Below are positions 25,750 through 28,347 of a DNA stretch of 64,000 nucleotides, in pieces; position 1 is the stretch's first letter; each line of letters begins with the position of its first letter. The notes beneath the pieces were generated by a model. That model saw only the letters and a list, made by a program, of their open reading frames with translations. It made no database searches and was not told where the DNA came from. The translations under genes and the position numbers were made by a program. Origin of the DNA: an uncultured Gallionella sp. (GTDB lineage Bacteria; Pseudomonadota; Gammaproteobacteria; Burkholderiales; Gallionellaceae); contig CAYPIG010000001.1 of the NCBI GenBank assembly GCA_964410705.1, positions 25,362 to 89,361 on the forward strand, given 5' to 3'.

Positions 25750-26205
25750 CTATTTTTCCGGATTGAGCATCTTGTAAGCGGCAGCTCTCCCGGTGTGTTC
25801 GTCCATGGCCTTTTGTTCCTGCTTGGCTGCTATTTTTTCCTGCTGTTCTGCATGGCGCTGCTGCAAGGTGTCGAACGATTTGAGCTTGCGCTGTGTGCCG
25901 GTATATTCGCTGCGTCCCTTCTGGGTCGATATTTTACTCTGTTCCAGCGCCTTGATCTGCTGGGCAATGGCAGCATCCAGCTTGTAAATAAAGGCCTGAA
26001 AGTTCCGCAGTTCCGCAGGCGTCATGCCTTCCTGGCTGGCTTTTTGCATGCGCGCCTGATAATCACGACGGTATTCAAGCAGCATGTCGAGCTGCGCCTG
26101 AGTATCGTGCTCCTGACGGTTTAGCTCCCCAAGTTTACGCGTGGCCGATTCGTTGCGTATCTGCGCCAGATTCAACAAGGGTTGCAATGCAAAGGGCTTG
26201 GACAT
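25750..26205 (-). CDS. fliJ: Flagellar export protein FliJ
   Basis: LLEYRRDY, FQAFIYKLDAAI, EQKAMDE; lies between fliI and fliK. Confidence 0.94.
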   Translation of the reverse strand: MSKPFALQPLLNLAQIRNESATRKLGELNRQEHDTQAQLDMLLEYRRDYQARMQKASQEGMTPAELRNFQAFIYKLDAAIAQQIKALEQSKISTQKGRSEYTGTQRKLKSFDTLQQRHAEQQEKIAAKQEQKAMDEHTGRAAAYKMLNPEK

Positions 26206-26210
26206 GTTCT

Positions 26211-27539
26211 TTAGTGTATGGTTTCAAACAGTGCCGCCAGCTGGGCGATGCTGTCGTTATAGTTTTCGCACTGTAGCATGCCTTGCTTCAAAAATTGCTC
26301 CATGCGCGGATAGATTCTGATGGCTTCGTCCAGCAACGGGTCGCTGCCGTTGATGTAGGCGCCTACACTGATCAAATCCCGGTTCCGCTGGTAGTGAGCG
26401 TACAGCTGTTTGAAGCGTTGCACCAGTTTTAAATGTTCGGGAGTGGCAAGTCTGGACATCACCCGGCTGATGGACGCCTCGATGTCGATGGCGGGATAGT
26501 GTCCCTGTTCGACCAGCCTGCGCGACAGCACGATGTGACCGTCCAGAATCGCGCGTGCACTGTCGGCTATCGGATCCTGTTGATCGTCGCCTTCGGTGAG
26601 TACCGTATAAAATGCGGTGATCGAACCGCCGCCTTCATGTCCGTTTCCTGCCCGTTCGACCAGCTGGGGAAGTTTGGCAAAAACAGACGGAGGATAACCT
26701 TTGGTTGCCGGGGGCTCTCCTACCGCCAGCGCTATCTCACGCTGTGCCATCGCGTAACGGGTCAGGGAATCCATGATCAACAACACATTTTTGCCCTGGT
26801 CGCGGAAATATTCGGCGATGGTGGTTGCATAGGCGGTGCCCTGCAGGCGCATCAGCGGCGAGGTGTCGGCGGGGGTGGCAACCACCACGGATCTGGCCAG
26901 GCCCTCAGGCCCCAGAATGTCATTGATGAACTCTTTGACTTCACGTCCACGTTCGCCTATCAGACCCACCACGGTGATGTCGGCGCTGGTATAGCGCGCC
27001 ATCATCCCCAGCAGCACGCTCTTACCCACGCCACTGCCGGCAAACAGTCCCATGCGTTGCCCTCTTCCGACCGAGAGCAGGCTGTTGATGGCGCGCACCC
27101 CGACATCGAGCGGGGTTTCGATGGAGGCGCGCTCCAGCGGGTTGAACGGGCGGCTCTGCAACGGCGCCGAAGCCGTTTCGTTCAGGGGCCCGAGCTGGTC
27201 CAGAGGTTTTCCTGCACCATCGAGCACGCGACCTAGCAGCATGTTGCCGACCGGCAGGTGTTTGGCGTGATCCGATTTGCGGCGGCGTGACGGTTTGCGT
27301 TTTTCCGCAAGGGTCATGGTGTGTGCAGGTTCAACCGGCCTGACGCGGGCGCCGGGGACCAAGCCATATACATCGTTTTCGGGCATCAGAAACAGTTTTT
27401 CTCCGGAAAATCCGACAACTTCCGCTTCAATCGTGCTGTTTGTCAGGCGGATTTCACAGGTGCTTCCCACCGGCATCTGTAAGCCGACCGCTTCCATGAT
27501 CAGCCCGGTCACCTTGGTCAGATGCCCACTCGGCGGCAT
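26211..27539 (-). CDS. fliI: Flagellum-specific ATPase FliI; conserved N-terminus continues upstream of this ATG (see finding)
   Basis: Walker [34 protein letters not shown]. Confidence 0.96.
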
Positions 27540-27618
27540 CGGGTTGCATTCGGCGACATAGGCGCGTCCTTCCGACAGAAAAGCCTGCCAGCGCAGACTG
27601 TGTTCACCGGGCTTTAAA

Positions 27619-27627
27619 GGGGGGGGG
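27619..27627. repeat. G9 homopolymer (C9 on the coding strand) in the fliI 5' region
   Basis: ...TTTAAA GGGGGGGGG CGT..., counted directly as 9 G. Confidence 0.95.
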
Positions 27628-27678
27628 CGTGATCCGGGGCGCCCGGATCGATGATCTCGGTCTGATCTATCCTGAGTG

Positions 27679-28347
27679 TCAGCTCATCATCCACGATTTA
27701 TCACGTCCTATGGATTCGATGATGTTCTGCCATCTGGCTGCATTGGTCGCATCGATATTGCTGTGTGCCGTTTCCAGACGGCATCCGCCCGCTTCGATTT
27801 TGGCATCGGTGAAGATTTTCCATCCGGCATGGGCGAGCTCTTCCCCCATCTGCTTGCGCACCAGTTCGGCGTCCTGCGGGTTCAGGATCAAATGCGCATT
27901 CTGATTGAAGTGCGGCAGACTGGATATTGCGGATCTGACGATTTTTACGATGACTTCGGGTCTGGTATGCAGTGTCTCGCTGATCATTTTACGCGCGATC
28001 TCCAGCGACAGGTCGAGCAACGATTGCGCCAACTGTTCGTCTATCTGAGTCAGTGCGATCTGCAAGTTGCCCATCAGAGTTTCTATGCGGGAGGTCTCTG
28101 ACTGGGACTGCATCAGTCCTGCCGAAAATCCAGCCTGATAGCCTGCCGCATAGCCTTCTTCGCGCGCCAGCTTTTGAGCATCCGCTAATTCGGCTGCGAC
28201 AGTGGCCGCGCTCATCGCAGCGGTGACCGAGGGTGCGAACACGGGGGGAGGCGGTGCCTTGACCTGTGCTCTGACTGGCGTGGCATCGAAAGAGGGCAAC
28301 TCCCAGCGTTCGAATGCCGTCATCTGTTCTCTGGGATCATTGGCCAT
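27679..28347 (-). CDS. fliH: Flagellar assembly protein FliH
   Basis: [18 protein letters not shown] repeats, GGCRLET. Confidence 0.94.

Follow-up and report, generated by a model that had tools for sequence, protein, structure and literature searches.

A poly-C tract breaks fliI in an uncultured Gallionella and probably varies in length within its population

The DNA analysed here, referred to as the window, is a stretch of 64,000 nucleotides from an uncultured Gallionella sp. (assembly GCA_964410705.1, contig CAYPIG010000001.1, positions 25,362 to 89,361 of the forward strand; coordinates below are those of the window). Our subject is its fliI gene, which encodes the ATPase of flagellar protein export and whose reading frame is broken in the window at a run of nine cytosines (C9, read as G9 on the plus strand). 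The genome holding the window is a metagenome-assembled genome (MAG) of 2.69 Mb in 116 contigs, about 92% complete. The FliI homologues closest in the database are annotated as Gallionella or Gallionellaceae, and the FliI open reading frame (ORF) of the window shares a 90%-identity cluster with FliI of G. capsiferriformans ES-2. The gene stands in a minus-strand series, fliF-fliG-fliH-fliI-fliJ-fliK-fliL, which includes the fliH-fliI-fliJ order of the flagellar operon. NCBIfam matches exceeded the curated cut-offs for fliF, fliG, fliI and fliJ, while those for fliH, fliK and fliL were significant yet below them. The terminal codons of fliH are shared with the start of fliI (GTGGATGATGAGCTGA), the end of fliH reading AAA TCG TGG ATG ATG AGC TGA at 27679.

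An earlier note on this DNA, made from the sequence alone, had claimed that the 5' end of fliI is frameshifted at the G9 tract, and we found the tract, the leader that opens at GTG27694 and the stop codon that closes it all at the positions it had given. The frame from GTG27694 ends at a TAA (27616-27614) placed right behind the C9 run (27627-27619), which occupies codons 22-25 of fliI and is the only homopolymer of at least nine nucleotides within the window. The frame of the fliI body is -1 relative to that of the leader and is open from a TGA TGA at 27689-27684. Between this pair of stop codons and ATG27539 the body frame contains no ATG, GTG or TTG, just as the note had read it. Translation of conceptual alleles likewise bore out its claim that one extra C yields a FliI of 494 aa; a C7 tract would give 493 aa, whereas C9 gives a 26-aa peptide and C8 one of 29 aa, the latter read straight from the sequence. 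A Shine-Dalgarno motif, AGGA, precedes GTG27694 (anti-Shine-Dalgarno pairing -4.9 kcal/mol), while none precedes ATG27539 (+0.1 kcal/mol). The 442-aa 'FliI' on record for the MAG is an annotation artefact of this broken gene. The features of the locus are collected in Table 1.

Table 1. Features at the fliI locus of the window, with coordinates and the evidence for each.
Feature	Coordinates	Strand	Evidence or remark
fliI 5' piece of the C9 allele: GTG start, 26 codons, TAA	27614..27694	-	Translation; homologous to Gallionella FliI N-termini
Poly-C tract (G9 on the plus strand), Pro codons in the hypervariable N-terminal linker	27619..27627	-	C9 is out of frame
Perfect 8-bp GC-rich hairpin/palindrome, GATCCGGG CGC CCCGGATC (GAUCCGGG-CGC-CCCGGAUC)	27631..27649	-	3 nt 5' of the tract
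FliH-binding N-terminal helix, 19 codons, in the body frame; start codon missing upstream in the C9 allele	27546..27602	-	Salmonella alignment (5b0o) and genus conservation
fliI body, 442-aa ORF from ATG27539, otherwise intact; Walker A GSGVGKS	26211..27539	-	TIGR03496 FliI_clade1
fliH, 222 aa	27679..28347	-	NCBIfam FliH NF004270, E = 3e-46, 157.8 bits (below the curated cut-off of 180); ORF list
fliJ, intact, downstream in the fliI operon	25750..26205	-	TIGR02473, 92 bits against a cut-off of 50

Both pieces of the broken gene belong to FliI. The 442-aa body scored 662.1 bits against TIGR03496 (cut-off 619.1) and matched Salmonella FliI of PDB 5b0o with E = 1.8e-181. Ahead of the body, a 16-residue segment of the window aligned with Salmonella FliI as seen in the FliH2-FliI complex 5b0o; the alignment begins at Salmonella residue 7, and ATG27539 falls near residue 25, so that the likeness to the Salmonella N-terminal helix, proposed earlier from the letters alone, was recovered against the structure. 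In all 17 same-genus relatives the fliI ATG lies in AAATC-ATG-GCT-G, at the base homologous to GTG27694 of the window, and a single frame runs from it into H-S-L-R-W-Q-x-F-L-x-E-G-R-x-Y-V-x-x-C-N and then into a further conserved stretch of 12 residues; the helix codons (27546..27602) are conserved in 17/17. Essentially all of the best 120 database homologues (464-527 aa) likewise begin at an ATG in the fliH-overlapping position and have an unbroken frame. The nearest database FliI proteins start MADDLTLDPEATFIDTG, MADDLTLKIDQPSIQEPKIP and MDDDLTLQIDQSALLNP, and the N-termini homologous to the leader of the window are MADDLTLKIDQPSIQEPKIP, MDDDLTLQIDQSALLNP and MADDLDLPPRTEP. Since the leader resembles the N-termini of these relatives, its 26 residues are a bona fide FliI N-terminus and no chance ORF. 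As both the leader and the downstream frame are FliI, the change of frame must lie between the end of the leader and GEHSLRW, which is precisely the site of the C run. The orthologue comparison for an MDDEL-type N-terminus that the note had suggested thus came out on the side of the upstream start, the fliH-overlapping position being used by all orthologues.

In the C9 allele the N-terminal FliH-binding helix is therefore not joined in one frame to a start codon and the ATPase, while in the C10 allele of run SRR13723393, described below, it is. Residues 2-21 of FliI form a helix held by one FliH C-terminal domain, FliI without FliH fails to reach the flagellar base, and both hexamer formation and ATPase activity suffer when residues 2-7 are deleted (PMC9114704). 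These observations bear on the idea that initiation at ATG27539, or at an in-frame CTG, yields a shorter FliI that still functions, and that the 26-codon ORF is irrelevant. Gene callers do choose the equivalent inner ATG in some relatives, and we tried two such proteins, P0071 (443 aa) and P0124 (441 aa), as further truncated FliI; both were rejected, as the ATG that overlaps fliH opens an uninterrupted frame in their DNA. Internal initiation is also at odds with the lack of a Shine-Dalgarno motif at ATG27539, with the genus-wide conservation of the helix codons, and with the loss from such a product of the helix equivalent to Salmonella residues 2-21 in a protein that needs FliH for its localisation (PMC9114704). 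We find this explanation, which the note had named as one that would overturn its reading, scarcely credible.

Because the underlying DNA is in frame, the 441-443-aa FliI records reflect the start choices of gene callers; their starts are mis-called, and they are without the FliH-binding helix through annotation alone. The JGI FliI calls in two metagenome contigs of related organisms, at L034 339-430 and L035 254-405, begin in the same way at an inner ATG (MPPTGHL and MPSSGRL, respectively), with the frame open from the fliH-overlapping ATG.

The tract lies in a part of the protein that varies freely. In this clade the acidic MADDL-type start is joined to the FliH-binding helix by a proline-rich, hypervariable linker that ranges from absent to about 85 residues, and in one relative the homologous region is spelled by two C6 runs. 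Within this indel-tolerant region, the tract of the window is an extreme case of repeated CCC proline codons.

The proteins of one sub-clade of Gallionella FliI are extended at the N-terminus, before the FliH-binding helix. The extension opens with the acidic motif M(A/V)(D/E)DL(T/E)L, which is conserved, and continues as the Pro-rich linker. It was seen at 27603-27694 of the window, at loci L004-L007 and L036 and in proteins P0001-P0020 and P0122-P0134, and Salmonella FliI has no counterpart of it. In one relative, G006, the linker is made of repeated GATCCTGCATCCT-like DNA units.

Evidence on tract length was drawn from assembled contigs, those of the MAG and the Logan contigs of sequencing runs, together with control tracts within the same genome. 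The earlier note had predicted an allele with one extra C, and such an allele was found in a sibling run. Logan contig SRR13723393_16605, reached by an exact FliG look-up, agrees with the window at every base of a 4,196-nt alignment (0 mismatches) apart from a single gap; that gap is at the fliI tract, which is C10 in this contig, and its frame from the GTG stays open, free of stops, up to the contig end. In contrast, a Logan contig of run SRR13723397, a separate k-mer assembly, shares 2,561 nt with the window at 100% identity, and its tract is C9. By locus, the tract is C9 in the window and L033, and C10 in L037 and L040. About 9 kb could be compared between runs, with 0 mismatches.

We then compared the tract with other long G/C runs of the genome. 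Runs of at least nine numbered 10 in the 2.69 Mb, against about 35 expected from composition, and fliI is the only gene that such a run breaks. The other long tracts within genes are in frame: a C10 in leuS, a G9 in a class-I fumarase gene, a C10 in a Wzy_C gene, a G11 in a gene for a 520-aa kinase-like protein and a C9 at the 5' end of a hybrid histidine kinase gene. The assembly of the MAG is thus not generally plagued by homopolymer frameshifts. Three of these tracts served as controls between data sets. The C9 of the histidine kinase gene was C9 in runs -93, -94 and -97 as well as in the MAG; the C10 of the Wzy_C gene was C10 in run -93 and the MAG, with 100% identity over 2,301 nt; and the protein containing the G11 was recovered letter for letter from run -97. 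Among the four long tracts compared across data sets, that of fliI alone varies, which is good, if not conclusive, evidence of a real length polymorphism. As the control tracts were concordant wherever run contigs cover them, random homopolymer error is unlikely.

The same data bear on whether the true sequence is uniformly C10 (or C9), one data set having miscalled the homopolymer. Several sequencing platforms make errors in homopolymers of 9-10 nt, the Logan contigs are short (2.5-15 kb), suggesting modest depth, and C10 occurs in one contig only, while the MAG and L033 may share reads. Such an error is nevertheless hard to square with C9 from two different assemblers, with three other G/C tracts of 9-11 nt that are equal in the MAG and in the covering run contigs, with the in-frame state of the remaining long coding tracts, that of the essential leuS included, and with the absence of any mismatch in the inter-run comparison. 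The sequencing error that the earlier note had allowed for was thus made unlikely by the two C9 assemblies and the three concordant controls, while keeping some probability.

The control sites lie in G000 at C37:13904-13912 (the C9, in codons 6-8 of a 664-aa hybrid histidine kinase), C11:22359-22368 (the C10, Wzy_C O-antigen-ligase-like) and C14:29047-29057 (the G11, APH/AAA_33 kinase-like). The longest homopolymer of the genome is an intergenic run of 13 C (G000 C3:46956-46968) between genes of 110 aa and 206 aa, the former toxin-antitoxin-toxin-like as judged by eye; this run may be a variable tract of the promoter-spacer type.

Further searches for alleles gave no additional lengths. Pattern scans of metagenome and genome contigs for the flanks of the tract with any tract length returned 0 matches, and neither conceptual product, the 494 aa of C10 or the 493 aa of C7, turned up when looked for by exact match in the protein collection. 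FliF and a 214-aa FliH call were used to look for other runs that cover the tract; SRR13723396 holds the strain, with a contig that stops in fliG. No complete C10 product is on record because every Logan contig breaks inside fliI. The Logan contigs of the strain all break in the conserved ATPase core of the gene (L033 ends at 27400 of the window; L037 ends, and L038 and L039 start, there), and these breaks are probably assembly-graph tangles among co-occurring Gallionella strains.

The six neighbours of fliI that were checked (fliF, G, H, J, K and L) are intact, and a genome-wide search for a compensating second FliI or an ATPase of a type III secretion system (T3SS) returned just F1-ATPase subunits, at 31-33% identity. 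With intact neighbours and no second FliI, a recent or reversible event fits rather than decay; with intact neighbours and C9 and C10 on identical backgrounds, the change is recent, reversible, or both. A fixed pseudogene or one-off loss, in which the C9 lineage is non-motile and on its way to losing the flagellum with no reversible switch, would suit a tract that is unique to the strain, an organism that has mismatch repair and a genus able to live attached, with motility variable in culture (PMC3770913). It sits less well with a fliI body and six checked neighbours free of any other lesion, with backgrounds identical over 4.2 kb, which imply a very recent change, and with the intrinsic liability of a 9-10-nt G/C run to more changes of +-1. 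We think it improbable, and in practice it differs from the length polymorphism that we favour only by the rate of reversion.

As to mismatch repair, both mutS and mutL are present in the genome. The mutL gene is complete on contig C63, while mutS is split across two contig ends (G000 C64:14611-15825 and C116:666-1910; profile positions 428-840 and 1-415), which looks like an assembly break and not a broken gene.

The hairpin that the earlier note had placed at 27631-27649, just 5' of the tract on the mRNA, was present in both the minimum-energy and the centroid fold (dG -12.8 kcal/mol). As a significant element it was rejected: the 91-nt region around it gave z = -0.48, and it is absent from the 17 genus relatives. 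Such stems are expected 0.019 times within +-30 nt of a given site, a figure to be read with the hairpin having been noticed post hoc, and 3/32 of the G/C runs of at least eight in the genome have such a stem nearby.

The hairpin also enters the proposal that full-length FliI is made from the C9 allele by recoding, either through -1 ribosomal slippage on C_CCC_CCC or through slippage of RNA polymerase, perhaps aided by the stem. The heptamer within GCC CCC CCC fits X_XXY_YYZ in the zero frame, a formal match only, and a stable hairpin does precede the run at close range. Slippage at T5C5 of Roseiflexus IS630 is driven by a hairpin that adjoins it on the 5' side, and transcriptional slippage is used by Shigella T3SS genes (PMC5009743). 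The correspondence is nonetheless imperfect. The IS630 hairpin directly adjoins its run, whereas that of the window is 3 nt away; an IS630-type deletion of one nucleotide would give C8 and a stop after 29 codons, as the productive changes here are +1 or -2; and efficient slippage is documented for A/T runs (PMC5009743). A stimulatory structure 5-9 nt downstream of the tract was looked for and not found, the 84 nt there folding no better than shuffled sequences (z = +0.28). Tract and frameshift occur in 0/17 genus relatives and in 0 of about 30 database homologues whose sequences were read, and an ordinary in-frame allele exists. The -1 recoding put forward in the earlier note is accordingly very unlikely, and any leakiness through slippage on C9 is expected to be low-level at most.

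We propose instead that the fliI tract is probably a genuine slipped-strand length polymorphism, present in at least two lengths in this Gallionella population, in which C10 is the on state and the C9 of the window the off state. A G/C run of 9-10 nt is a classical hot spot of slipped-strand mispairing, and the locus has the features of phase-variable loci: a mononucleotide run of at least about 8 within coding sequence, lengths that differ on an identical background, and a length change that toggles the product between full and truncated. In the working C10 allele, translation would start at the fliH-overlapping GTG and pass through an acidic, proline-rich linker and the FliH-binding helix into the ATPase, giving 494 aa. 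The C9 allele would most likely have arisen from it by loss of one C through slipped-strand mispairing at replication. In C9 cells ribosomes would terminate after 26 codons; the ATPase body would have neither a start codon nor a ribosome-binding site of its own before ATG27539, and a product begun at ATG27539 would be without the helix that docks on FliH. From the early stop and the want of a helix-bearing start, we infer that flagellar protein export and flagellum assembly would be off or strongly reduced, a motility phenotype deduced solely from the role of FliI and its N-terminal helix (PMC9114704). Regain of one C, or loss of two more, should turn fliI on again.

A number of points weigh against this proposal or narrow it. 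C10 is carried by one assembly only, so a run error at the fliI tract is possible, and one set of reads may underlie both the MAG and the SRR13723397 contig. The two alleles are known here from assembled contigs of different runs, the comparison covering two data sets. None of the 17 genus relatives has a long C tract, the longest C run among them being 6, and a tract found in no relative gives no sign of selection as a switch. With mutS and mutL present and few long tracts, the organism is unlike the classical contingency-locus organisms, and the constancy of the three other tracts between runs limits any claim of a selected switch. Salmonella mutants without FliH and FliI are further reported to keep some export, the FliH2FliI complex being called 'not essential' (PMC5789064), so 'off' in the C9 allele may mean 'reduced'.

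Even so, nature shows both tract states, and the genetic background around them is otherwise identical. Confirmation at the level of reads would mean that slippage by a single base can toggle the motility of an iron-oxidiser that positions itself in opposing O2/Fe(II) gradients, and the ratio of the alleles could then be tracked directly in metagenome time series. A bolder version holds that the tract is a working, selectively maintained flagellar phase switch in a free-living, mismatch-repair-proficient chemolithotroph, with a palindrome that raises slippage and an off state that is leaky. We regard this version as doubtful. Were it true, the population would be split as a hedge, C10 cells being motile and tracking gradients and C9 cells attached and without flagella, with the palindrome acting on slippage at replication or at transcription. 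Contingency-locus biology, seen mainly as host adaptation, would extend to environmental iron-oxidisers, and the unexplained 'variable motility' of Gallionellaceae cultures (PMC3770913) would have a genetic basis.

Homopolymer switches in flagellar genes are textbook matter for Helicobacter and Campylobacter; to our knowledge they are hardly documented in free-living environmental bacteria. A search of a literature library for fliI, homopolymeric tract and frameshift together found no report. Slippage in Roseiflexus IS630 and the Shigella T3SS genes (PMC5009743) resembles the present case in having a GC-rich hairpin just 5' of a C-containing run and a gene of the T3SS family that needs a change of frame. 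It differs from IS630 in the spacer (3 nt here, direct adjacency there), in the productive change (+1/-2 as opposed to -1), in the unconserved site and in the existence of an in-frame DNA allele. In Listeria monocytogenes the poly(A) tract of inlA has an off allele in natural strains and reverts about 1000-fold above the point-mutation rate (PMC2831843). As in inlA, the fliI tract is close to the 5' end, so that the frameshift leaves a very short peptide, but inlA is a virulence gene with a poly(A) tract, whereas fliI is a motility gene in which poly(C) spells Pro-Pro-Pro in a hypervariable linker.

Closer still are the flagellar switches themselves. Phase variation at homopolymers affects flhA in C. 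coli and flgR/flgS in C. jejuni (PMC3930126), and these, like the fliI tract, are on/off frameshifts inside a flagellar gene, with alleles that in Campylobacter are mixed within populations. The Campylobacter tracts, mostly A/T, are found in genes of regulators or of the export gate, whereas that of the window is poly-C and lies in fliI; Campylobacter also has dozens of contingency loci, while the Gallionella genome has its 10 long G/C runs, three others of which were invariant when compared. H. pylori is not known to have mismatch repair of the MutS/MutL type. Its poly-C tract in fliP offers the nearest parallel: a change of +-1 truncates the protein and stops flagellum assembly, reversibly by slipped-strand mispairing (Josenhans et al. 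2000, cited in PMC3930126). In both cases a short coding poly-C run sits in a gene of flagellar type III export, although for fliI we infer the phenotype and its reversibility. While fliP encodes a membrane component of the export gate, the Gallionella gene encodes the cytoplasmic ATPase, and while H. pylori is a host-adapted epsilonproteobacterium, the organism here is a free-living, mismatch-repair-proficient, Fe-oxidising betaproteobacterium. In this sense, the fliI tract is a device of a known kind, placed in a gene and an ecological setting that are both new for it.

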